Positions 5,357 to 22,959 of a stretch of DNA of 64,000 nt are shown here, one piece after another. The notes beneath the pieces were generated by a model. The model saw only the letters and a program-made list of their open reading frames with translations. It was not told the DNA's origin and did not search any database. Both the position numbers and the translations under genes were made by a program. Each line of letters begins with the position of its first letter. Position 1 is the first letter of the stretch. Where the stretch lies: the NCBI GenBank assembly GCA_013374835.1, contig CP055307.1:471315-535314 (forward strand), given 5' to 3'. The stretch comes from Candidatus Woesebacteria bacterium (GTDB lineage Bacteria; Patescibacteriota; Microgenomatia; UBA8517).

Positions 5357-5504
5357 TAGCCTCTTTTTAGGGAAATATTGGTATAAGTGTGGATTGATTT
5401 CAGAAGAGGATGAATGTTTTTGGTAATAATAAATTTTTAGCCAATCACCTTAGACATCATCTTGATTTATATTTATAAGAGGTGTAATTTTAAAAAAAGA
5501 AGTT

Positions 5505-5600
5505 GTGTTTAAGGAATCCGGTGAAAGTCCGGGGCTGTGCCGCAACCGTGAAAGACGGAAAACTAGCAACTTCATTAATCCCGAGCAGGATGGTGGTTAC
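5505..5600 (+). promoter_or_regulatory. Candidate cobalamin (B12) riboswitch aptamer
   Basis: AAGGAAUCC-GGUGAAAGUCC-GGGGCUGUGCCGCAACCGUGA fits the cobalamin-riboswitch core pattern GGUGnAAnUCC...CnGnCCCGCnACnGUnA with one mismatch. A degenerate B12-box-like GAGCAGGAUGGUGG overlaps the ATG at 5590. Confidence 0.4.
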
Positions 5601-13594: not shown

Positions 13595-15196
13595 ATGAAT
13601 AATATTTCGACTTTGAATATTAGAGATTTGTCAATTTTTAATTATATAGCAATAACAATTATTAATTTTATTGTATTTATTTTGTTGGTTACAGTCTTTT
13701 TGCACGGTAGATTTAAAGATAAAAAGAGCAAAACATTCGTTCTTATGAGTTTTTTTATGCTTGCTTGGGTGGATTTTGCTTTTTTGGCAAGAATTTTTGG
13801 GTTTTATCAAAATATTTCTTTAATTTTTTTGAGGATTGCCTGGATTGCCACACCCCCTTTGTTTTTTAGCACTTACTTAATATCCATTTTGATGGTTGAA
13901 AAAGATCGTGCGTATAAATATTTGACGCTAATTTTATTAATTATAACTTCCGTTTTAAGCTTTTTGACGGCTTTTACGGATTTAATTATTAGCGGTGTTA
14001 AATTTAAGGACGGGACGCTCGATATAATCTATGGGTATGGTTTTTTTCCCTTTTTGTTTCTTATTTTGGGGATTATGGTTTCTACGGTTGTGCCCATTCT
14101 TCGATCTCATATTAACAAAAGAACTAGATATTTTTTAGTGGGAGTTATTGTTTTTTATTTAGCGAATAGTGTTTTTAATATTGGATTACCGGTATTTAAA
14201 GGGTTTACAAGCTATTATTACTTAGGTGATTATTCTACTAGTATACTTCTTGGGTTTACGGCATATTCAATAATAAGACATAAATTATTTGATATTAAAG
14301 TCATTGGAGTTGAGGTTCTTACTGTTTTGATTTGGGCTGTTCTTTTGTCTGAGATATTTGTTGCTAAAGATTTTAATGAATTGCTGATAGATTTTGTTTT
14401 ATTGATTTTGACAGTAATATTTGGTTTTTTCTTAATAAGGAATGTTTTAAGAGAAGTTGAACAAAAGAAAGAGCTTGAGGGGTTGAATCGGAAACTTAAA
14501 GAGCTGGACCAGGTTAAGAATGAGTTTATTTCTGTTGCCGCGCATGAGCTTCGAGCGCCTTTGACTGCTGTTAAGGGATACTTGTCTATGATATTGGATG
14601 GGGATGCGGGTACGATAACAGCTCAAACAAGGGATTTTTTGCAGGATATTCAGCTTTCTACAGAGCGGATGATACGGCTTGTTAGTAATATGCTTGATGT
14701 GGGAAGGATTGAGGAAGGAAGGATCGCTTATAATCTTGAGGATGTTAATTTGACTGAAATAGTTAATACGGCTTACAGCGAGTTTAAACTGGAAGCAGAG
14801 AGAAAGAATCTTAAGTTTACGTTAGATATCCAAAGTAATGTGCGGGACCGTGTACATGTCGATCGTGATAGGCTTCATGAGGTGGTTGTTAATTTTCTAA
14901 GTAATGCTACTAAATATACAGAGACGGGTGGGATTACTATGAAACTATTTAATAAAGGTTTGAAAATCGTGAGGCTTGAGGTTATTGATACTGGAATGGG
15001 TATATCAAAGGAGGAACAAAAAAAACTTTTTAGGAAGTTTTATAGAGTTAAATCAAAAGTTGGTAAGACAATAGGCAGTGGACTGGGGCTTTATATCTCA
15101 AAGCTTTTAATTGAGAAGTTTGAGGGGAATATTGGTGTGGATTCTGAGCCTGGGAAGGGAAGTAATTTTTGGTTTGAACTGCCAGTTTCTTCTTGA
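13595..15196 (+). CDS. Sensor histidine kinase with a multi-TM N-terminal sensor domain
   Basis: 533 aa with about 7 N-terminal TM helices. H-box HELRAPLTAVKGY and HATPase_c N/G boxes (NAtKYT, DtGmGI, GsGLGL). Confidence 0.85.
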   Translation: MNNISTLNIRDLSIFNYIAITIINFIVFILLVTVFLHGRFKDKKSKTFVLMSFFMLAWVDFAFLARIFGFYQNISLIFLRIAWIATPPLFFSTYLISILMVEKDRAYKYLTLILLIITSVLSFLTAFTDLIISGVKFKDGTLDIIYGYGFFPFLFLILGIMVSTVVPILRSHINKRTRYFLVGVIVFYLANSVFNIGLPVFKGFTSYYYLGDYSTSILLGFTAYSIIRHKLFDIKVIGVEVLTVLIWAVLLSEIFVAKDFNELLIDFVLLILTVIFGFFLIRNVLREVEQKKELEGLNRKLKELDQVKNEFISVAAHELRAPLTAVKGYLSMILDGDAGTITAQTRDFLQDIQLSTERMIRLVSNMLDVGRIEEGRIAYNLEDVNLTEIVNTAYSEFKLEAERKNLKFTLDIQSNVRDRVHVDRDRLHEVVVNFLSNATKYTETGGITMKLFNKGLKIVRLEVIDTGMGISKEEQKKLFRKFYRVKSKVGKTIGSGLGLYISKLLIEKFEGNIGVDSEPGKGSNFWFELPVSS

Positions 15197-15480
15197 CTTC
15201 TTCTTCTGCTAATCTACTCCCCAAAGCGTGCAAAGAACGCTTTGCACTTTGAAACGGCTTGGGTTTTTAGGCCAAAACTTCAAAGGCCAATTTTCTAGCC
15301 TCATGCCTATCTAAGTCGGCTGGCTCCCAAAAGCGGGAGAAAAACAAGCCAAAAACCAAAAAAGGCCACTGAGTTAGAAAAAGCCTAAGAAGTAATGCCC
15401 CAAAAACCCCAAGGAAGCTCTCATTCTCCGCCCAATCTTGGGCAACCAGCTGGAAGGAATCCAGAAAGCAGGAGGGTCTG
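15193..15480 (+). repeat. Repeat B copy 1: conserved GC-rich ~290-bp leader element
   Basis: About 80-85% identical to 18331-18629 and 20159-20465. It begins TTGACT-(CTT)3CTG-CTAATCT and contains the palindrome GTGCAAAGaacgCTTTGCAC and the CTCCCaaaagcGGGAG hairpin. It ends in AGGAGG, 5 nt upstream of the small-ORF start. Confidence 0.8.
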
Positions 15481-15744
15481 ATGGGAGACAAAGATCCTCG
15501 AGACGAAACTCCTAAGGGATGGGAATGGCGTTTTGGTGGACCACCTCGAGATATGGCTCCTGGCCAGTACATGGAGCGAGCAGGTTCACTTGGGGGTGGA
15601 ATAGTAGTAGAGTACACTTCCGTCCCAACGCCAGATGGTGAAATGCTCATCCAGAAAACCTCCGAAATGCGTAACGGTCGTCCGATTGAAGCCGGACACG
15701 CTACTCGCCACGGTGGGAAGTGGTTTGACCGTTATCCGGAGTAA
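15481..15744 (+). CDS. Small GC-rich protein s1 (87 aa)
   Basis: Perfect SD AGGAGG, 5 nt, ATG. Gly/Pro-rich. Weak motif similarity to the s2 and 16301 ORFs. Confidence 0.4.
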   Translation: MGDKDPRDETPKGWEWRFGGPPRDMAPGQYMERAGSLGGGIVVEYTSVPTPDGEMLIQKTSEMRNGRPIEAGHATRHGGKWFDRYPE

Positions 15745-15781
15745 CAGGGGTTTCCAAAACTGAATAGTAGCCTATATTATA

Positions 15782-15859
15782 AAAGGGAATTGCTGCATTG
15801 TGCAGTTATCATGTTGGCTACCATGAGAAGATTCTACTATCTCAATTCCCTTTTTCTTT
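15782..15859 (+). terminator. Terminator-like long hairpin after s1
   Basis: aagggaattg (15782-15791) pairs with caattccctt (15843-15852) and is followed by TTTCTTT. The loop contains an inner hairpin ctgcattgtgcag. Confidence 0.35.
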
Positions 15860-15865
15860 AACACA

Positions 15866-16258
15866 ATGTGCAAAAGCAAAGAACAAACTTTAGCCAATCA
15901 ATTCATTTTAAAAGGGCTAAAAACACCGCTAGATCCAAAAAGATACTGGGCGCCTTTAGAAGATTCTGTGCTAATGTTGCTTGACGATTTCTTTAATAAA
16001 AAGATTGACACAAAAACAACAGGGAAGATAGGGAAGATTTTATATGAATTTCAATACTTTACATATGAACTTTATTGTGTAGATCCAGAACTTTTTAAGG
16101 TATTAGACTATCTAGTCGTTTTATATAATCCATCTGTCTTAAGGACTAAGGCTAAAAATAGTGTGAAGATTAGGCAAGCAGTAAAATTGCTTAAAAATTA
16201 TTACGAAAGCAAAAAATCGCGCGTTGATTTTTTGAGAGTTTATTTTAGTAAACAGTAA
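15866..16258 (+). CDS. Hypothetical protein, ~130-aa paralog family (member 1)
   Basis: 130 aa. Its C-terminal pattern (..YF.YEL....P......YI..) resembles that of the 16580 and 21788 ORFs. Confidence 0.45.
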   Translation: MCKSKEQTLANQFILKGLKTPLDPKRYWAPLEDSVLMLLDDFFNKKIDTKTTGKIGKILYEFQYFTYELYCVDPELFKVLDYLVVLYNPSVLRTKAKNSVKIRQAVKLLKNYYESKKSRVDFLRVYFSKQ

Positions 16259-16300
16259 AACAACCAAAGTGCTTTACTCTTTCTCATCCTTATTTAAGCA

Positions 16301-16474
16301 ATGCCTGACATTGGAGCAAGTACCCACTTTGATGAGGGAAAAGGTGGATCCGATCACCAAACTGTTTATGGTGATGGATGGCACCGCTCTTGGGACATCG
16401 ACCGAGACAACAACGTCACCCGCGATCACATCACAATCCATTGGGATAGTGGCAACCAAGTCCTGAAGGACTAG
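16301..16474 (+). CDS. Possible small GC-rich ORF (57 aa), a candidate fourth member of the s1/s2 small-protein family
   Basis: Hand translation gives MPDIGASTHFDEGKGGSDHQTVYGDGWHRSWDIDRDNNVTRDHITIHWDSGNQVLKD. It shares GW.(W/R)..(F/W)...RD and TR.H...W(F)D motifs with s1. All three frames are open here, so the coding call is uncertain. Confidence 0.2.
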   Translation: MPDIGASTHFDEGKGGSDHQTVYGDGWHRSWDIDRDNNVTRDHITIHWDSGNQVLKD

Positions 16475-16493
16475 CGCACTTTCCCTTTACCAA

Positions 16494-16552
16494 GGAAGGG
16501 TGCCTTTTGAGGTCACCAATGTGTGAGGATTAACCCACCCTTCCTTTTTTTA
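16494..16552 (+). terminator. Rho-independent terminator with a long loop
   Basis: GGAAGGGTG (16494-16502) pairs with CACCCTTCC (16536-16544) and is followed by TTTTTTTATTT. Confidence 0.45.
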
Positions 16553-16579
16553 TTTATAATATCAGTATTAATTAAATAC

Positions 16580-16912
16580 ATGGATTTTGAAGATTTATTT
16601 AATAAATACCTTGCAAATCAGCTTAAAAGAAAGATGACTGAACATGATGCAAGAGAGATATTTGAAAAAGCTGCAAAGGATTATTTTTCAAAAAAAATTA
16701 GTCTTGACTTTCTCATAGGCATAGCCACACAACTTTATTTTGAGCTTCTGAAGCCGTCTGATTATACAGGAGGGGTATTTCATAATTTAATTGAAAAAAC
16801 TGCGGATTTAGATTTTTATATTGAGGAATCTAAAAAGGGAGATAAAGAAGCAAAGAGGTACATCAAAGAATACTTTTCTGAATTAAGAGAATATATAAGT
16901 AAAGCCTCATAA
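16580..16912 (+). CDS. Hypothetical protein, ~130-aa paralog family (member 2)
   Basis: The ATG at 16580 (MDFEDLF) is preferred over the track GTG at 16523, which lies inside the terminator. Similar to 21788-22186 (DLDFYIEESKKGDKEAKRYIKEYFSELREYI vs SASDFVFFLQKNDSESKKRTKAIIKELKSYYI). Confidence 0.45.
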   Translation: MDFEDLFNKYLANQLKRKMTEHDAREIFEKAAKDYFSKKISLDFLIGIATQLYFELLKPSDYTGGVFHNLIEKTADLDFYIEESKKGDKEAKRYIKEYFSELREYISKAS

Positions 16913-16964
16913 TTCCTTGTAATTTGAATTTGTATTAACACTTGTTTTTCATCCAACTAAATAT

Positions 16965-17031
16965 AAACTCTGGGTGGAGAAAGAGTGGGTCCCCAGTCCT
17001 AGCAAATACCAATAGGTATTACTCTTTCTCC
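16965..17031 (+). repeat. Repeat A copy 1: conserved structured hairpin element
   Basis: About 90% identical to 18879-18944. An 11-bp stem GGAGAAAGAGT/ACTCTTTCTCC encloses a conserved ~35-nt loop with an inner AATACCaataGGTATT hairpin and a CUGGG...CCCAG pairing. Confidence 0.7.
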
Positions 17032-17064
17032 ATATTTGTCTTTGAAGTAAAATTAAAAGTCAAG

Positions 17065-18288
17065 ATGCTTTCTGATAATTTGAAAAATTTACATCAAGAA
17101 TATCTATTGTATTACAAAGAAAATGGCATTAAGCTTCTCCCCCATGAATTGCAAAAGAGAATTGCTTATACAGCAAAAATTGCAAGAGAAAACTACAAAA
17201 GATTAAAGCATCCTATTACTACCTCTTTAGAAAATTATATAGAAATTTGTGTCCATTTTAGTCTTTCACTAGATTTAGCGACAAGATCAGTTGAAACTGT
17301 TAATTTAACCAATCCGCCTTTTAACTTCCGTGCTGCGGCAGCATATTTTCTTGAGTTACCTTACGAGCTGCACCAGAGGATTGAAAAAGATCTATTCAAT
17401 ATTCACCCTGAAAAACGCGAAGAATTTTGGAAAGATCTTAATTTAAATATACCCAAGATAGAAAAGAAATTCATCGCTATGATTGAGGAAAGAAAACGCT
17501 TTGCACAAAGTAAAGGTTATGAGTCCCAGATTGATTTATCTTTCAAGAAATCTAAAATTCCACAATCAGTTCTAAATCGTTTTGTTGTAAATCAGGATAA
17601 ATTAATTAACTTTTGCAATCAAAATCTACCAAAGATCGGAAACAAACCAGATTGGTTTTATTCAAACTTCAGTAAAACTTGTTTTTTGTGCATGATACAA
17701 CCATTTCCCTTTAGCTCTCTAGAAAGTGTATTCGAAAAAGCGACGTTTATTCATCCAATTCTACAAAAGTATAATGAAAAAATAACTATTAAGCCTTCGG
17801 GAAGTTCGCACACCACGTATAAGGAAGGAACTGATAGCTTTGAGGTATATATTGAAAATGACCAAAACCTCCGTCATCAGATTGTTGATCTCGTCCACGA
17901 GTTGGGACATGTAATAAATAATCTTGAAGACCTAAACAAAAACAAGAATCCTTTCTTAAAAGGAAGATTCTTGGCTGAAAAAGAGGCTAATGAGATTGAA
18001 ATTGATTTTTATAAAAAGACATCAAGACTTCTTTATCAAGCTTCCTTTGGATGGATTCTTTGGTTGTTTAGAAGGACATTATTCGAGATAGAATTACACA
18101 AAAATCCACGACAAAACCTAAGCAAACTTTATGCCGATACTTATAACAAGTGTTTTAAAGGGGCAAATCAAAAATCAAACCCCACATACTTTATAGATAC
18201 TTATATCTCCCTGAGACCTTTTTCAACCCTACCCCATACGCTGGCATATTCTGAAGTAGTTACTAAACTAATAGAGAAGAAAAAGTAG
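17065..18288 (+). CDS. M3-like (oligoendopeptidase F-like) zinc metallopeptidase paralog 1, shortened
   Basis: HELGHVIN is an HExxH motif, with a Glu (AEKEANE) downstream. The PepF-like segment ERKRFAQSKGYESQIDLSF is present. ATG at 17065 preferred over the TTG at 16942, which reads through repeat A. About 30-35% identical to the 18975 paralog. Confidence 0.5.
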   Translation: MLSDNLKNLHQEYLLYYKENGIKLLPHELQKRIAYTAKIARENYKRLKHPITTSLENYIEICVHFSLSLDLATRSVETVNLTNPPFNFRAAAAYFLELPYELHQRIEKDLFNIHPEKREEFWKDLNLNIPKIEKKFIAMIEERKRFAQSKGYESQIDLSFKKSKIPQSVLNRFVVNQDKLINFCNQNLPKIGNKPDWFYSNFSKTCFLCMIQPFPFSSLESVFEKATFIHPILQKYNEKITIKPSGSSHTTYKEGTDSFEVYIENDQNLRHQIVDLVHELGHVINNLEDLNKNKNPFLKGRFLAEKEANEIEIDFYKKTSRLLYQASFGWILWLFRRTLFEIELHKNPRQNLSKLYADTYNKCFKGANQKSNPTYFIDTYISLRPFSTLPHTLAYSEVVTKLIEKKK

Positions 18289-18330
18289 TTGGAAATAAGT
18301 TTCTATGATTTGCTTTTTTCTGATTACAAC

Positions 18331-18629
18331 TTGACTTCTTCTTCTTCTGATAATCTACTCCCCAAAGCGTGCAAAAAACGTCTTGCACATTCACAGGCTT
18401 GGGTTTGAGGCTCAACTTCTAGGGAATCTTTTCTAACTTCACACCCTCAAAAACGGCTAACTCCCAAAAGCGGGAGGAAAAAACTAGCCAAATCTAAATG
18501 TGGTCAATGAGGTTAGAAAAAACCTGAAGAGGAAGAGCCAAAAAAAACCAAGGAAGCTCTCTTTTCCGCCCAATCCCGGGCAGCCCACTGGCGGGTTGCC
18601 AGATGAAATCTGAGAAAGGAGAGTCCCTA
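18331..18629 (+). repeat. Repeat B copy 2
   Basis: TTGACT-(CTT)4CTG-ATAATCT... Same conserved hairpins as copy 1. Ends with AAGGAGAG 7 nt before the ATG at 18630. Confidence 0.8.
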
Positions 18630-18857
18630 ATGGGCGATCCCGGAAGACTCATTCGGGCTAGTGATGTAAATCAAATCCCACCTGGTGCAATGGTGGTGGG
18701 AAGCTACATCATGTTCCCCGACGCCGAGGGTGGTCTGCACCCCACGCCACAAGAGCGCGTCTCGTCAGATATCCGACGGGAAAGCAATACGCGAACTATT
18801 ACTGGCGGAAACTGTGGCCAAGACCCCTCTTTGGTACCTAACGTATCAAAAAAGTGA
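18630..18857 (+). CDS. Small GC-rich protein s2 (75 aa from the SD-proximal ATG)
   Basis: Begins MGD like s1. VVGSYIMFPDAEGG resembles VVEYTSVPTPDGE in s1. Confidence 0.4.
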   Translation: MGDPGRLIRASDVNQIPPGAMVVGSYIMFPDAEGGLHPTPQERVSSDIRRESNTRTITGGNCGQDPSLVPNVSKK

Positions 18858-18878
18858 GTCTGGCCATGACAACTAAAT

Positions 18879-18944
18879 AAATTCTGGGAGGAGAAAGAGT
18901 GGGTCCCAGCCCTAGCAAATACCAATAGGTATTACTCTTTCTCC
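18879..18944 (+). repeat. Repeat A copy 2 (also serves as a terminator-like hairpin after s2)
   Basis: Same stem and loop as copy 1, followed by TTTTAAGTT. Confidence 0.7.
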
Positions 18945-18974
18945 TTTTAAGTTCCAAAATAGTAAAATAAGAAA

Positions 18975-20162
18975 GTGTACACCTACTTAAAAATCTACAG
19001 GGAAAGAGGACTCAATCCTGACATCAAATCGTTAATCAAACTTATATCTAGACAATCAAAACTTGCAAAAGATCAATACCAAAAACTAAGCACTCCCAAA
19101 ACAATGTCGGAAGGTCTTTATGTTCATGCTTGGGTAAGGAATGCTGTTATTCATGATATTTATGAAAATATAAAAATCATAAGACCAGAGCATGAATATA
19201 AAGCCTCAATAGACTTCTATTTAGCATTTCCTAACTCACTTCGTAAAAAGCTTAGAAAAGACATAAACAGTGCTACATTAGATCAAAGAGCAAAAGTGTG
19301 GAATAAATATAAGCTAGATTTTAAAAAAATAGAGAAAACATTCATAGCACTTACAATTCAAAGAAACACATGGGCTAAACAAAAAGGTTTTAAAAACTTT
19401 CTTGAAGAAAAGCTAAAACACTACAAAATACCAAGAAAAGATTATGAATTATTCAAGGCTCAAACCAACAATCTAATTAAATATTGTAATAGTCAACTGC
19501 CCAAAATAAAACTGCCATCAATTGTATTAACAGAATTTACCAAGCCTTGTTATCTTTGTCTTTCAACTAACTTTCCATTTACCAATCTTGAAGAAACAAT
19601 TAATTTTGTCTTTGGTGAATACGAAATTCTCCAGAAATTCAAAAAAAAGATAAAAATTAAATTCACTGATTATTCAGAAATGAGTTATAACGTTCAGGAC
19701 GATTCTTTTGAAATTAGTATAGAAAAAGATACTAACCTCCGTCACCAATCCCTAGCAATAATCCATGAACTAATCCATGTCGTAAATCACATTGAAAGTT
19801 ATAAAAGGGGATTCTTACCTTCCGAGAAAGGAAATTATTTTCAAGAAAAAGAAACACTAAAAAAAGAGATTCCGCTACTTAAAAAGATATCACCAGTTTT
19901 TTATAAATCCATCTTTAGTGAATTTCTTAAAGTCTTCCAACAAGTACTATTTGAAATAGAACTCTATAACAATCCTAATCAGAATTTAAGCAAGCTTTAT
20001 GCGGATGTTTACAACCTTTGCTATCCTCAGGCAAACCAAAAGCAAAATAGATCATTTATTCTGAATAAAGACATAGTAGAGCAACCCCTCTCAATCCTCC
20101 CCAACGCCATAGCCCAATCCATAGTCATCAAAAAATATTTGAAGCTGAACACATCCTCTTGA
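18975..20162 (+). CDS. M3-like zinc metallopeptidase paralog 2, shortened
   Basis: HELIHVVN is an HExxH motif. NPNQNLSKLYADVYN is conserved with paralog 1. A KQKGFKNFLEE segment is also present. Confidence 0.5.
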   Translation: MYTYLKIYRERGLNPDIKSLIKLISRQSKLAKDQYQKLSTPKTMSEGLYVHAWVRNAVIHDIYENIKIIRPEHEYKASIDFYLAFPNSLRKKLRKDINSATLDQRAKVWNKYKLDFKKIEKTFIALTIQRNTWAKQKGFKNFLEEKLKHYKIPRKDYELFKAQTNNLIKYCNSQLPKIKLPSIVLTEFTKPCYLCLSTNFPFTNLEETINFVFGEYEILQKFKKKIKIKFTDYSEMSYNVQDDSFEISIEKDTNLRHQSLAIIHELIHVVNHIESYKRGFLPSEKGNYFQEKETLKKEIPLLKKISPVFYKSIFSEFLKVFQQVLFEIELYNNPNQNLSKLYADVYNLCYPQANQKQNRSFILNKDIVEQPLSILPNAIAQSIVIKKYLKLNTSS

Positions 20163-20465
20163 CTTCTTCTTCTTCTTCTTCTGCTAACCTTGCTCCCAAA
20201 GCGTGCAAAGGACGCTTTGCACTTTGAAACGGCTTGGGTTTTTAGGCCAAAGCTTGGAGGTTTGTTTCTATCCCCATACCATCTATGATGAGCCGACTCC
20301 CAAAAGCGGGAGTAAAAACAGGCCAAACGCAAAAACGGTCACTGGGTAGAAAAAGCTAAAGAAACAAAGCCAAAAAACTCCAAGGAGGCTCTCATTCTCC
20401 GCCCAATCCCGGGCAACCAGCTGGAAGGAATCCGGTAAAGGGAGACAAAAAGACAGGAGGTTTCT
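20159..20465 (+). repeat. Repeat B copy 3
   Basis: TTGACT-(CTT)5CTG-CTAACCT, giving an optimal 17-nt spacer. Ends AGGAGG, 5 nt, then GTG. Confidence 0.8.
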
Positions 20466-20657
20466 GTGAATAACAGCAAGGGAAGCGGCGGAAAAGCAGG
20501 CAGTACTTCCATAACAGTAAAGCTGCCCATGGATCTGTCTCTCATAAAGGAACTTAACCAACAGTTCACTGTGGAAGAGGCTGCCAAGCAAACAAGCACC
20601 ACAAAACAGGAAGCAAAAGAAGCCTGGAAAGCCGCAAAGGAAGATAGTAGCAACTAG
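20466..20657 (+). CDS. Small protein s3 (63 aa, GTG start), Lys/Ala/Glu-rich and unrelated to s1/s2
   Basis: Perfect SD spacing. Contains a helical KEAWKAAKE-type C-terminal region. Confidence 0.35.
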   Translation: MNNSKGSGGKAGSTSITVKLPMDLSLIKELNQQFTVEEAAKQTSTTKQEAKEAWKAAKEDSSN

Positions 20658-20695
20658 GTTTCTGAACATTAGAGCTTCCTAATATCTCAACTCAT

Positions 20696-20760
20696 GGAAT
20701 GTCGGATTCCATAGCAGTCATAATAAGATATGCTAAGAGTCCGACATTCCAAATCATCTT
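20696..20760 (+). terminator. Long hairpin after s3
   Basis: GGAATGTCGGATTC (20696-20709) pairs with GAGTCCGACATTCC (20737-20750), a 14-bp stem with one G-U pair. The downstream U-tract is weak. Confidence 0.3.
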
Positions 20761-20785
20761 TCAAAAAATATATAATTAACCCAAT

Positions 20786-21118
20786 ATGAAACAAGCTACA
20801 ACTTTAAGTAAACAAGAAGAAGACAGACTGGTAGAAATTATAAGACTTGGACAAGAAAGTAACGCCACAGAAAAACAAAAGAAAGATTCTCTCAAAGCGA
20901 TGGAAAAACTGTTAATCTACTTACAACCATTGGTAGCAAACATTGCCTTAAAATACGCAGCAGGAACTATCCATCATGATGAACTAATTCGAATCGGAAA
21001 TATTGGAGTAAGAAAAGCAATACTTAAATATAATCCCAATAGAAACTTTAAGTTTTCGACTTACGCTTCGTGGTATATTAGAGCAGAAATTCACAAGAAA
21101 TTGGGTCTTCCTCTATAA
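20786..21118 (+). CDS. Truncated sigma-70 family protein (regions 1.2 through 2.3 only)
   Basis: LVANIALKYAAGTIHHDELIRIGNIGVRKAILKYNPNRNFKFSTYASWYIRAEI matches sigma70 region 2 (..FSTYATWWIRQAI..). The ORF stops after region 2.3, so regions 2.4, 3 and 4 are absent. Confidence 0.5.
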   Translation: MKQATTLSKQEEDRLVEIIRLGQESNATEKQKKDSLKAMEKLLIYLQPLVANIALKYAAGTIHHDELIRIGNIGVRKAILKYNPNRNFKFSTYASWYIRAEIHKKLGLPL

Positions 21119-21158
21119 TCTAGTTTTAAATTTCTCTGTTATCCATAATTGAATAAAT

Positions 21159-21641
21159 ATGGACGTTAAGCTTAAAAAATTATTTTATGAAGACAAGATC
21201 CTTCGTGTTTTAGGTCCTGAATGGAAAAGAGTAAAACGGTTTATAGGTGATGAGGAAGTTGAGGTAAGAAATAGTTTTTTCTTAGAGACAAAAGATGGGA
21301 TTAAAATTGAGTTTTTTATCTTATCCCCAGAAACATACCAAGAATGTTATTCGGTTAAAATAGAACAATATGTTCGCAGAAAAAGTAAAGAAAGTGGTGG
21401 TTACTACAGCGAAGTATCAACTATTCATTTTCAAGAAATAACAACTGTGAAGTATTTTTATAAATTGGGAATGATAGCAATGATTAGCAAGCAGAAGGAT
21501 TATTTTTCCGACCTCTGGTTATACAAAAGCGGAGCAGTCAGAATATCGGTTGCGCACCCCATATCCTTTTACAACAAACAAGACTTATGGACATATGATA
21601 TGGCCAACCGCGAAGGCGAAGAGGTTTTTACATTAGAATAA
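21159..21641 (+). CDS. Hypothetical protein
   Basis: 160-aa ORF with no recognised domain. Confidence 0.4.
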   Translation: MDVKLKKLFYEDKILRVLGPEWKRVKRFIGDEEVEVRNSFFLETKDGIKIEFFILSPETYQECYSVKIEQYVRRKSKESGGYYSEVSTIHFQEITTVKYFYKLGMIAMISKQKDYFSDLWLYKSGAVRISVAHPISFYNKQDLWTYDMANREGEEVFTLE

Positions 21642-21787: not shown

Positions 21788-22186
21788 ATGAGAGCTAAAA
21801 GAAAAACTAAAAGCAAATCTGGCTTTGAGAGATATGATTATGTCTTTTCAGGAATTAAACTATCAGAACCTCTTTCTATTAAACAAATTAAGTCAATTTT
21901 TTTGATATTACTTCATGATTATTTTCAAAATGAAATAGATGAATTTTTTCTAGAATCTTTAGCAGGTGATTTGTATTTTAACCTATCTGAATCACCAAAC
22001 TATATACAGGCAAAAGACCCTGAACTAAGTCTGGCTCTTGATAGCGCATCAGATTTTGTTTTCTTTCTTCAGAAGAATGATTCTGAAAGCAAGAAAAGAA
22101 CTAAAGCAATAATTAAGGAATTAAAAAGCTATTATATTAAAAATCGCAATGAAATAGAGCATTATTCTCATGATTCCAGTGATTGA
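21788..22186 (+). CDS. Hypothetical protein, ~130-aa paralog family (member 3)
   Basis: Similar to the 16580 and 15866 proteins. Confidence 0.45.
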   Translation: MRAKRKTKSKSGFERYDYVFSGIKLSEPLSIKQIKSIFLILLHDYFQNEIDEFFLESLAGDLYFNLSESPNYIQAKDPELSLALDSASDFVFFLQKNDSESKKRTKAIIKELKSYYIKNRNEIEHYSHDSSD

Positions 22187-22299: not shown

Positions 22300-22959
22300 C
22301 TAGAGATAATCTCTCCATTTATTATCCTGAATTATCTCTGGAATAGATTTTTTTTGTTTTACCAACCACGCTCGTAATTTTTGTTGGGCAGGATACCCCT
22401 TTTCTTCTGGATTAGTGAATACAGTTAAAGCTTCTTTAAGTGATTCAAATTTTTCTTTTCCCAACTCCTTTTTTAGATTCCCAAAATAATAATAAAACAT
22501 AAAATGATTAAGTTCATGAGTTAGAATTTGAAGCTGTCTTTCAGGAATTGCCCCTCCAAAAACCATAATCCATTTCTTTTCAAAATTGTAAGGACAAATT
22601 GGCAGAGAAGAAAGATATATTTTGATTTGTTTGAATGGGATCTTGCGCCCATATATTTTTTGTAGTCTATTTTCTATTTGGGAACCGTTTTTCACCCATG
22701 CCGATTTCAGCTCTTGAGCAACAACTGAATATTTTGCCTTTCTACTCTCTAAATTCTGGGAAAGGAAATCTTTAATTATATTTCTTGCTTGTTTTTCGCT
22801 TTTACTATTTTTAAGATCAATCCTAACCCTCTCCGGGAGAGCGCTAAAAAATTTATCTTGAAGATTGTCCCTTCCATGTTTGTACCACACAAACTTATAA
22901 ACAGATCTTAAATAATTCCATACATCAAGATCCAACGAATAACTTACTTTTATATCCAT
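22300..22959 (-). CDS. Hypothetical HExxH protein (possible zinc metallohydrolase)
   Basis: 219 aa; HExxH motif ILTHELNHFMF. Confidence 0.4.
   Translation of the reverse strand: MDIKVSYSLDLDVWNYLRSVYKFVWYKHGRDNLQDKFFSALPERVRIDLKNSKSEKQARNIIKDFLSQNLESRKAKYSVVAQELKSAWVKNGSQIENRLQKIYGRKIPFKQIKIYLSSLPICPYNFEKKWIMVFGGAIPERQLQILTHELNHFMFYYYFGNLKKELGKEKFESLKEALTVFTNPEEKGYPAQQKLRAWLVKQKKSIPEIIQDNKWRDYL

Follow-up and report, generated by a model that had tools for sequence, protein, structure and literature searches.

A 64-kb stretch of a Candidatus Woesebacteria genome (contig CP055307.1, positions 471,315 to 535,314; hereafter the window) contains three copies of a noncoding element of ~290 to 307 nt, all on the plus strand and each ending at the Shine-Dalgarno (SD) site of a different small open reading frame (ORF), s1, s2, or s3 (Table 1). 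The element recurs in a second genome, where it is conserved in sequence and keeps the same hairpins, and its copies evolve in concert. We favor, at a probability of about 55%, the reading that each copy is a promoter joined to a long structured 5' leader, which together would form a self-contained expression module placed before a small hydrophilic protein, with gene conversion and a shared input tying the modules together. As a cis-acting 5' leader on a reused promoter, the element is of a known kind; its family is uncatalogued and its deployment unusual.

A profile built from the three leader copies recovered them with nhmmer at E-values of 2e-92 (copy 1), 2e-90 (copy 2), and 9e-95 (copy 3), and independent repeat finding delimited the same three blocks, which upholds the coordinates proposed in an initial annotation made by reading the letters of the window. 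No fourth copy lies within the window, where the next nhmmer match reached only E 0.019. Pairwise identity over the core is 71 to 79%, below the 80 to 85% first estimated. The copies do begin at or after the stop codon of a large gene, as described: the TTGACT that opens copies 1 and 3 contains the TGA stop of the histidine kinase gene and of peptidase 2, respectively, and copy 2 begins 43 nt past the stop of peptidase 1. The AGGAGG or AAGGAG sites at the 3' ends are likewise real, and only their distance from the start codon needed correction, from 5 to 7 nt to 5 nt before ATG in copy 1, 8 nt before ATG in copy 2, and 5 nt before GTG in copy 3. The region is GC-rich, as had been noticed, at 46 to 47% in the leaders and 47 to 54% in the small ORFs, compared with 30 to 33% in neighboring genes and 36% in the window as a whole. 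Because every leader has two to five stops in each of its three reading frames, and because indels of 1 to 2 nt separate the copies, we consider the leaders to be noncoding.

Table 1. Positions of the leader copies, T elements, and genes discussed in the text. Positions without a contig handle are those of the window. SD, Shine-Dalgarno; pLDDT, predicted local distance difference test.
Feature	Position	Strand	Remarks
Leader copy 1	15193-15480	+	Recovered by the nhmmer profile
Copy 1 TTGACT	15193-15198	+	Overlaps histidine kinase stop; (CTT)3 follows
Copy 1 extended -10 motif TGCTAATCT	15207-15215	+	
Copy 1 hairpin H1	15228-15247	+	
Copy 1 hairpin H2	15318-15350	+	Inner CTCCC-AAAAGC-GGGAG at 15324-15339
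Copy 1 SD-like CAAGGAAG	15410-15417	+	
Copy 1 CU-rich segment	15418-15429	+	
Copy 1 hairpin H3	15430-15443	+	
Copy 1 hairpin H4	15450-15464	+	
Copy 1 SD AGGAGG	15470-15475	+	
s1	15481-15744	+	87 aa, hydrophilic, Gly/Pro/Arg-rich, 53% GC
Terminator-like long hairpin, then TTTTTCTTT	15781-15854	+	Closes the s1 unit
Helical partner, 130 aa	15866-16258	+	AT-rich; paralog of proteins at 16580-16912 and 21788-22186
Family-B protein, 57 aa	16301-16474	+	Motif YGDGWHRSWD; leaderless; hairpin and T-run at 16492-16545
Helical partner, 110 aa	16580-16912	+	AlphaFold six-helix fold, pLDDT 89
T element copy 1	16968-17038	+	27 nt 5' of peptidase-1 start
Peptidase paralog 1, 407 aa	17065-18288	+	HExxH; predicted neurolysin-like M3/M32 fold; no SD
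Leader copy 2	18331-18629	+	TTGACT 18331-18336, (CTT)4, SD AAGGAG
Copy 2 extended -10 motif TGATAATCT	18348-18356	+	H1 from 18369
s2, family-A protein, 75 aa	18630-18857	+	GGNCGQDP
T element copy 2	18882-18952	+	23 nt 5' of peptidase-2 start
Peptidase paralog 2, 395 aa	18975-20162	+	L029 ortholog, 53% aa identity
Leader copy 3	20159-20465	+	TTGACT 20159-20164, (CTT)6, SD AGGAGG
Copy 3 extended -10 motif TGCTAACCT	20182-20190	+	H1 from 20203
s3, 63 aa	20466-20657	+	GTG start; long hairpin after it at 20695-20751
T elements, other loci	L029 10050-10120 and 13699-13769	-	
T elements, other loci	L036 5698-5766; L037 2873-2942; L019 9908-9982		
Blackburnbacteria leader copies	L019 6568-6835, 7736-8032, 9391-9687, 11484-11721		
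Motif CCACCTCTAAGGTGTCTAGA sites	L019 5357-5393, 5430-5486, 8450-8475, 11328-11380, 12562-12599, 13612-13646, 14945-15000		

A two-motif pattern taken from the leader matched a Joint Genome Institute (JGI) metagenome contig of 38% GC (L029), which holds three full leader copies on its minus strand (E ~1e-85). Along this strand the contig reads leader, 68-aa ORF, and peptidase; then leader, 80-aa ORF, and helical protein; then leader, 73-aa ORF (the s2 ortholog), and peptidase (the peptidase-2 ortholog); and last a leaderless 70-aa ORF followed by a helical protein. In both genomes the leader ends at the SD before a small ORF, and the ORF families behind the copies differ. Leaders of the two genomes are 64 to 68% identical, with invariant blocks of 11 to 16 nt, whereas the orthologous DNA of s2 and peptidase 2 is 57 to 61% identical, with third positions at 35 to 44%, near saturation; the encoded proteins share 55% (s2) and 53% (peptidase 2) of their residues. 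The leader is thus better conserved between genomes than orthologous coding DNA, which points to purifying selection acting on it.

Inside one genome, leader identity rises to 71 to 100%. Two of the L029 copies (m1 and m2; we call the L029 copies m1 to m3 and those of the window w1 to w3) are 100% identical over ~310 nt, from 17 nt 5' of TTGAC to ~20 nt before the start codon, and the identity ends sharply on both sides. One of the two precedes an ORF of family A and the other an ORF of family B, two families of small proteins described below. Because the identity is sharp-ended although the ORF families that follow differ, the comparison indicates gene conversion of exactly the leader module. 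Within-genome similarity of the leaders is inflated by this process, and the earlier statement that they are far more conserved than the ORFs is misleading in a second way as well, since the ORFs are members of different families and not fast-diverging copies. That the small ORFs behind the leaders are non-homologous to each other was correctly recognized; the weak similarity ascribed to s1 and s2 is not significant (BLASTP E 0.22).

The search of related genomes that had been suggested thus yielded the three L029 copies; the two-motif pattern found no match among Genome Taxonomy Database (GTDB) representative genomes, and the other two of the three metagenome pattern matches (L030, L031) were judged to be chance. 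Across all collections searched, the leader sequence family is confined to two genomes. In agreement with the first impression that it belongs to no known RNA family, neither the leaders nor the T elements (short RNA elements before the peptidase genes, described below) matched any Rfam 15 family when the window was scanned at the gathering threshold, 15100-21200 by E-value, and 12 related loci; the E-value scan of 15100-21200 returned sub-threshold chance matches only, none of them in leaders or T elements. No tRNA or tmRNA was found. Comparison of the leader with plasmid and phage collections by blastn gave zero matches, and in viral contigs the matches to a single 16-nt motif of the leader were all attributable to chance.

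All six leader copies (window and L029) carry an extended -10 motif, TGnTA[A/G][T/C]CT, which in 3/3 window copies ends exactly 12 nt 5' of the first hairpin, H1. The distance from TTGACT to the -10 hexamer is 11, 14, or 20 nt, as set by 3, 4, or 6 CTT units. We rejected TTGACT as a properly spaced -35 element, given that a 17-nt spacing occurs in no copy. The CTT units between TTGACT and the -10 motif number 3, 4, and 6 in the window (15197-15208, 18335-18349, and 20163-20183) and 4, 4, and 3 in L029. Nor is there evidence of phase variation through this tract, since the unit numbers are identical in L017, which was assembled independently from the population of the window. The sole leader difference between that assembly and the window is a C/T substitution in the H1 loop (window 15238, L017 239).

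Four local hairpins, H1 to H4, are retained in 6/6 copies. H1 has the form GUGCAAA(G)-loop-(C)UUUGCAC, in the window GTGCAAAG-N4-CTTTGCAC, and its arms differ between the two genomes as 8 bp with a 4-nt loop versus 7 bp with a 5-nt loop. H2 (GGCU..CUCCC-AAAAGC-GGGAG..AGCC) and H3 (GCCC-AAUCYY-GGGC) have invariant stems and near-invariant loops. The three hairpins first pointed out in the sequence, namely the H1 palindrome, CTCCC-AAAAGC-GGGAG, and GCCC-loop-GGGC, are therefore all present. The CTTGGG/CCCGGG difference between copies, which had been taken as compensatory, is a loop-proximal difference; the real compensatory changes lie in H4, directly 5' of the SD, where CUGGA/UCCAG, CUGGC/GCCAG, and CUGGUA/UACCAG form a true compensatory series and the loop changes completely while pairing persists. 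In the RNAalifold consensus of the six copies, 92% of cells are paired compared with 39 to 60% in slid controls, and 11 pairs are changed on both sides compared with 1 to 3. Coming from five distinct sequences in two genomes, this covariation is suggestive. Copy 1 folds better than its shuffles on the plus strand (z = -3.8). The original idea of a structured shared leader or cis-regulator is accordingly broadly sustained, in that the element is noncoding, recurs in a second genome, and has conserved hairpins with compensatory changes, its covariation being suggestive only.

The SD itself is predicted to be mostly paired in 6/6 copies (probability unpaired 0.01 to 0.33), its predicted partner being either the 5' CUU tract or the CU-rich segment just 5' of H3, in duplexes of -7 to -16 kcal/mol. 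We grade SD occlusion as plausible and no more, given how readily runs of purines pair with runs of pyrimidines. An SD-like AAGGAAG or AAGGAGG stands ~60 to 80 nt 5' of the start codon in w1, w2, w3, and m3, and each small ORF is followed either by a long hairpin and U-run or by a T element.

In the model that we favor, the extended -10 box would drive transcription of the leader from a start a few nt before H1, so that H1 would become a 5'-terminal stem-loop. Stem-loops so placed can shield an mRNA from decay. Next would come an A/C-rich body with H2 and H3, then the SD-like AAGGARG, then the CU-rich segment, capable of pairing with the true SD, and finally H4 and the SD. Such a leader would set the stability of the mRNA and gate its translation by hiding the SD, and the invariant hairpin loops would be likely contacts for a factor, whether protein, ligand, or temperature. 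The small proteins served in this way are probably abundant. Since the long hairpin and U-run after the small ORF would close the unit, expression of the downstream partner gene is probably lower. Gene conversion would keep the copies alike inside a genome, and unrelated small proteins (family A, family B, s1, and s3) would therefore answer to one input.

Several observations weigh against this model. TTGACT is conserved, yet it stands 11, 14, or 20 nt from the -10 hexamer, and the model leaves it unexplained. With only two genomes and five distinct sequences, the covariation is statistically weak, and the caveats of the tools concerning related sequences apply. The minus strand of copy 1 folds almost as well as the plus strand (z = -3.5), and the central helices show about equal numbers of G-U and A-C departures, so that structure does not identify the strand; a strand call from such counts was abandoned as uninformative except in the closing helix. 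Because both strands fold similarly, we rely on the SD and ORF context for the orientation of the leader. Purine and pyrimidine runs pair easily by chance, and the predicted SD partner varies among copies; the SD-like AAGGARG is missing from two of the six (m1 and m2). In ~20 related peptidase or family-A loci, the leader was detected neither by nhmmer profiles built from three and then six copies nor by a covariance model of its 3' half. Finally, we infer both the transcript start and any action of the leader at the level of RNA from motifs and predicted folds.

Other Microgenomates have leaders of their own. Candidatus Blackburnbacteria (L019/L034) carries a different ~300-nt leader, in four copies within ~5 kb, all of them placed before small D/R/G-rich ORFs that belong to family B or family A. 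The 5' part of this leader has an extended -10 motif, TGATATACT, and then a 5' hairpin with compensatory variants; a perfect anti-16S sequence, GGAAGGAGGTGAT, lies ~190 nt 5' of the start codon and is followed by a CU-rich tract; and the 3' part consists of a hairpin that ends UUGGGCAGG with AACUGG after it, to be compared with UUGGGCAACCAGCUGG in the window, and then of the SD. Long hairpin-rich leaders behind canonical TTGACA-N17-TATAAT promoters precede family-A genes in five further loci (L021, L024, L040, L041, and L049). Three of these (L024, L040, and L041) share with the Blackburnbacteria leaders a common 3' module of hairpin, hairpin, YUAACAACCC, and SD, and the L049 leader resembles that of L024, as judged by eye. 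Neither nhmmer nor a covariance model linked the window-type leader to these other Microgenomates leaders, and homology between them is possible. A short motif, CCACCTCTAAGGTGTCTAGA, recurs many times in the surroundings of the small-ORF units of Blackburnbacteria, where it frequently forms direct repeats, and resembles a protein-binding site.

Among known systems, the leader invites comparison with 5' stabilizers and leader-controlled translation, such as the ompA stem-loop, the STAB-SD of Bacillus thuringiensis cryIIIA, and the long shared 5' untranslated regions of cspA paralogs (PMC4113751, PMC3997798). The likeness lies in a long leader before a gene with a probably abundant product, a hairpin predicted near the 5' end (with the start placed from the extended -10 motif), an SD-like sequence far upstream that may correspond to STAB-SD (AAGGARG in 4/6 copies and the perfect anti-16S GGAAGGAGGTGAT in Blackburnbacteria), and a terminator-like hairpin that would close a short mRNA. 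The window leader differs in that it has no sequence relation to these elements, serves non-homologous genes, and far exceeds them in length; this length, its four conserved hairpins, and its invariant loops suggest a specific partner rather than simple protection. With multicopy cis-regulatory leaders of the riboswitch-like or protein-binding type (T-box and ribosomal-protein leaders) it shares the iteration of one structured leader before several transcription units, which would give them a common input, and a candidate expression platform in which, by thermodynamic prediction, a CU-rich strand can hide the SD. Unlike them, it is absent from Rfam 15, occurs in two genomes only with weak covariation, and stands before genes that share no known pathway.

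The main rivals of the RNA-leader reading are a DNA-level operator and neutral promoter reuse. According to the first, which strikes us as improbable, the element is a promoter region whose palindromes, H1 especially, are operators for a dimeric regulator, and its RNA structure is incidental; s3, a nearby sigma-like fragment, or the upstream two-component system could supply the regulator. H1 indeed forms a perfect inverted repeat of 8 bp that begins 12 nt past the -10 box, a classic position for a repressor, both strands fold about equally well, and the direct repeats of CCACCTCTAAGGTGTCTAGA before Blackburnbacteria leaders resemble binding sites. Yet ~300 nt are conserved, far beyond what an operator needs, and the arms of H1 shift by one base in spacing between genomes, a change that a hairpin tolerates and a dimer site tolerates poorly. 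H4, for its part, keeps its pairing through three different base pairs around a wholly changed loop. As for the regulator, the N-terminal ITVKLPMDLSLIKELNQ of s3 is reminiscent of ribbon-helix-helix repressors on a reading of its sequence alone, but searches of Pfam and of PDB sequences returned no match and we did not retain the assignment.

Somewhat less probable again is the second, in which the element is a neutral or selfish by-product, a duplicated promoter fragment or small repeat that has been homogenized and functions only as promoter and SD. Similar 5' regions before unrelated genes are a known phenomenon: in putative mobile promoters, highly similar 5' regions stand before genes of a single genome that are not homologous (Matus-Garcia et al. 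2012, PMC3488235). The leaders resemble them in this and in their spread by recombination, with 71 to 79% identity before non-homologous genes in the window and up to 100% in L029; the copies also cluster by genome, and the family is limited to two genomes in the collections searched. The window unit, however, is ~300 nt long, whereas a promoter and an SD need ~60 nt; purifying selection appears to conserve it across genomes, and it invariably accompanies genes for one class of product, the small hydrophilic proteins of a single gene neighborhood. Neutral drift would hardly leave 64 to 68% leader identity and invariant blocks where proteins are only 53 to 55% identical and silent sites are saturated, and an unrelated sequence of the same layout is iterated in Blackburnbacteria. 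Nor does the element look like a mobile repeat. We found no terminal inverted repeats, target duplication, nearby transposase, or further window copies of the sort that mark miniature inverted-repeat transposable elements and insertion sequences; the leader ends (CTTCTT... and ...AGGAGG) are not inverted repeats at the DNA level; and the lack of any match to Rfam, plasmid, phage, viral, or repeat sequences speaks against the known insertion sequence or repeat family that the initial annotation had named as a possible refutation.

It is very unlikely that the leader is a free-standing noncoding RNA gene, perhaps on the minus strand, that lies upstream of the small ORFs by chance. Its GC-rich composition in an AT-rich genome and the significant folding of both strands would fit such a gene; against it, no terminator separates leader from SD, homology stops exactly at the SD in each copy, a promoter-like site on the minus strand was not found, and Rfam gave no match. 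The type I toxin-antitoxin pattern (Ldr/Rdl, Ibs/Sib), which calls for a small hydrophobic toxin and an overlapping antisense RNA, does not apply either, as the proteins here are hydrophilic, with much Gly, Asp, Arg, and Pro, and the minus strand lacks a detectable promoter. We dismiss the proposal that the conserved region codes, as an N-terminal leader peptide fused to variable cores or as a small upstream ORF, because the GTG-initiated ORFs of 17 to 48 aa that begin inside H1 face stops in every frame of every copy and 1 to 2-nt indels, the upstream-ORF frame is broken in copy 2, and each small ORF is equipped with an SD and a start codon of its own.

A second RNA element, the T element, lies directly before each peptidase gene. 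It is ~70 nt long and ~85% identical between the window and L029, despite protein identities of 53 to 55%. It comprises an 11-bp helix, P1 (GGAGAAARRGU/ACYYUUUCUCC; GGAGAAAGAGT/ACTCTTTCTCC in copy 1), a GGG/CCC helix, P2, a short hairpin, P3 (AATACC/GGTATT in copy 1), and a predicted pseudoknot in which the 6-nt 5' flank pairs with the P2 loop. The pseudoknot varies across loci as CUGGGA/UCCCAG, CUGGCA/UGCCAG, CCGACA/UGUCGG, CUAGU/ACUAG, UGAA/UUCA, and UGGG/CCCA. Over seven sequences drawn from five genomes, paired cells make up 92%, compared with 54 to 58% in slid controls, and eight pairs change on both sides, including 5/6 pseudoknot pairs. A covariance model found weaker copies directly 5' of the peptidase in L021, L022, L035, L040, and L039; the L038 match also lies upstream of a peptidase, with a stronger match on the opposite strand. 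Behind P1 stands a U-rich tail in w_pep2, m_pep1, L037, and L019, the tails of the others being weaker, and a terminator consensus scan did not call the element, its loop being too large. Our preferred reading makes the T element a structured attenuator or leader that belongs to the peptidase gene. Its standing as an RNA is better supported than that of the 290-nt leader, and its covariation is enough to justify description as a family.

A broader and doubtful, though not fanciful, reading would make the leader and the T element two undescribed regulatory RNAs of a Microgenomates-specific system, in which abundant small disordered proteins are produced on a shared signal and processed or bound by the M3/M32-fold oligopeptidase and the helical partner; the leader loops would sense the signal, and the T element would be an attenuator responsive to a ligand or protein. 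Almost nothing is known of gene regulation in the candidate phyla radiation (CPR), the ultra-small uncultured bacteria that include Microgenomates, and the locus offers two uncatalogued RNA elements together with a conserved, unnamed gene set, namely Cys-x-Gln proteins with the oligopeptidase and GDGWH proteins with the helical partner. One leader for unrelated small proteins, kept uniform by conversion, is a clear case of regulatory wiring in which a promoter and its leader are reused. Should the small proteins turn out to be abundant factors in stress, at the surface, or in host interaction, the RNAs would be practical handles on their control.

The label of M3-like peptidase given to the two large paralogs holds at the level of the fold. 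Peptidase 1 has nine homologs, one of them from Candidatus Blackburnbacteria, a Microgenomates lineage of the CPR. Across 11 sequences, H278, E279, H282, and E305 are invariant, E305 lying 26 residues past the Glu of HExxH, and the family has three invariant Cys. The AlphaFold model (pLDDT 91.6) drew Foldseek top matches to M32 carboxypeptidase, PepF, Pz-peptidase, ACE, and neurolysin, and the best PDB matches were 1k9x, 2h1n, and 3ahm (E 4e-4 to 8e-4, TM-score 0.49 to 0.53), so the model places the protein in the closed-channel oligopeptidase fold of M3/M32 type. No Pfam or NCBIfam M3 or M32 model matched, and the only hit was a sub-threshold Peptidase_M78 (E 8e-4). Like the neurolysin-fold oligopeptidases of M3, M32, and M2 (PepF, Pz-peptidase, the Pyrococcus carboxypeptidase, and ACE), the window proteins combine HExxH with a downstream Glu as third zinc ligand and an all-helical two-lobe fold, and no signal peptide is evident from the sequence. 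They differ in length (~400 aa compared with 500 to 680), in the three invariant Cys and the missing Pfam M3/M32 match, and in being usually paired with a 52 to 84-aa Cys-x-Gln protein and preceded by a pseudoknotted RNA element. The peptidase starts at 17065 and 18975 have no recognizable SD, and every small ORF has a perfect one.

The small proteins fall into several groups. Family A, which includes s2, comprises 32 clusters among 5.8 billion proteins, all unannotated; its members are 52 to 84 aa long with an invariant Cys and Gln in a GGCxQ motif, and in the related loci examined the gene usually lies directly 5' of a peptidase homolog. That s2 is coding is borne out by its L029 ortholog, with codon-position identities of 65/71/35%. 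Family B (motif GDGWHxSWD), which includes the 57-aa ORF, pairs with a ~125-aa six-helix protein, and this helical-partner family has ~106 representative clusters; the model of the 110-aa partner has no specific or informative structural neighbor. s1 falls in none of the families in the databases and may be distantly related to family B, and s3 has no detectable homolog. In a genome of 46% GC, a gene resembling family B comes directly after one of family A, and no peptidase lies in the vicinity (L043 4051-4598), an arrangement that links the two families functionally. Searches of the small ORFs, helical partners, and peptidase in Pfam, NCBIfam, PADLOC, and PHROGs gave nothing above threshold, and PADLOC and PHROGs found no defense-system or phage signature at the locus; the toxin, signaling, or peptide-maturation role first floated for these genes thus found no evidence in these databases.

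In the flanks of L021, L024, L027, L029, and L043, genes for HEPN/nucleotidyltransferase pairs, PemK, DUF3800, or restriction-modification are frequent neighbors of the peptidase and small-ORF modules, and the surroundings resemble variable or defense-type islands. Directly after the third unit of the window, a 110-aa ORF (20786-21118) matches only sigma-70 region 2 (E 4e-11), which makes it a truncated sigma factor or else a free-standing fragment; a sigma-70 gene also lies near the Blackburnbacteria locus (L019 5444-6055). Farther along, a 219-aa ORF on the minus strand (22300-22959) adjoins the third helical-partner paralog, and its HELNH motif suggests that it may be a further small metallopeptidase. 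The sole Rfam match in the window at the gathering threshold is an AdoCbl-II cobalamin riboswitch at 5500-5572 on the plus strand (38.7 bits), which overlaps an ORF start at 5503.

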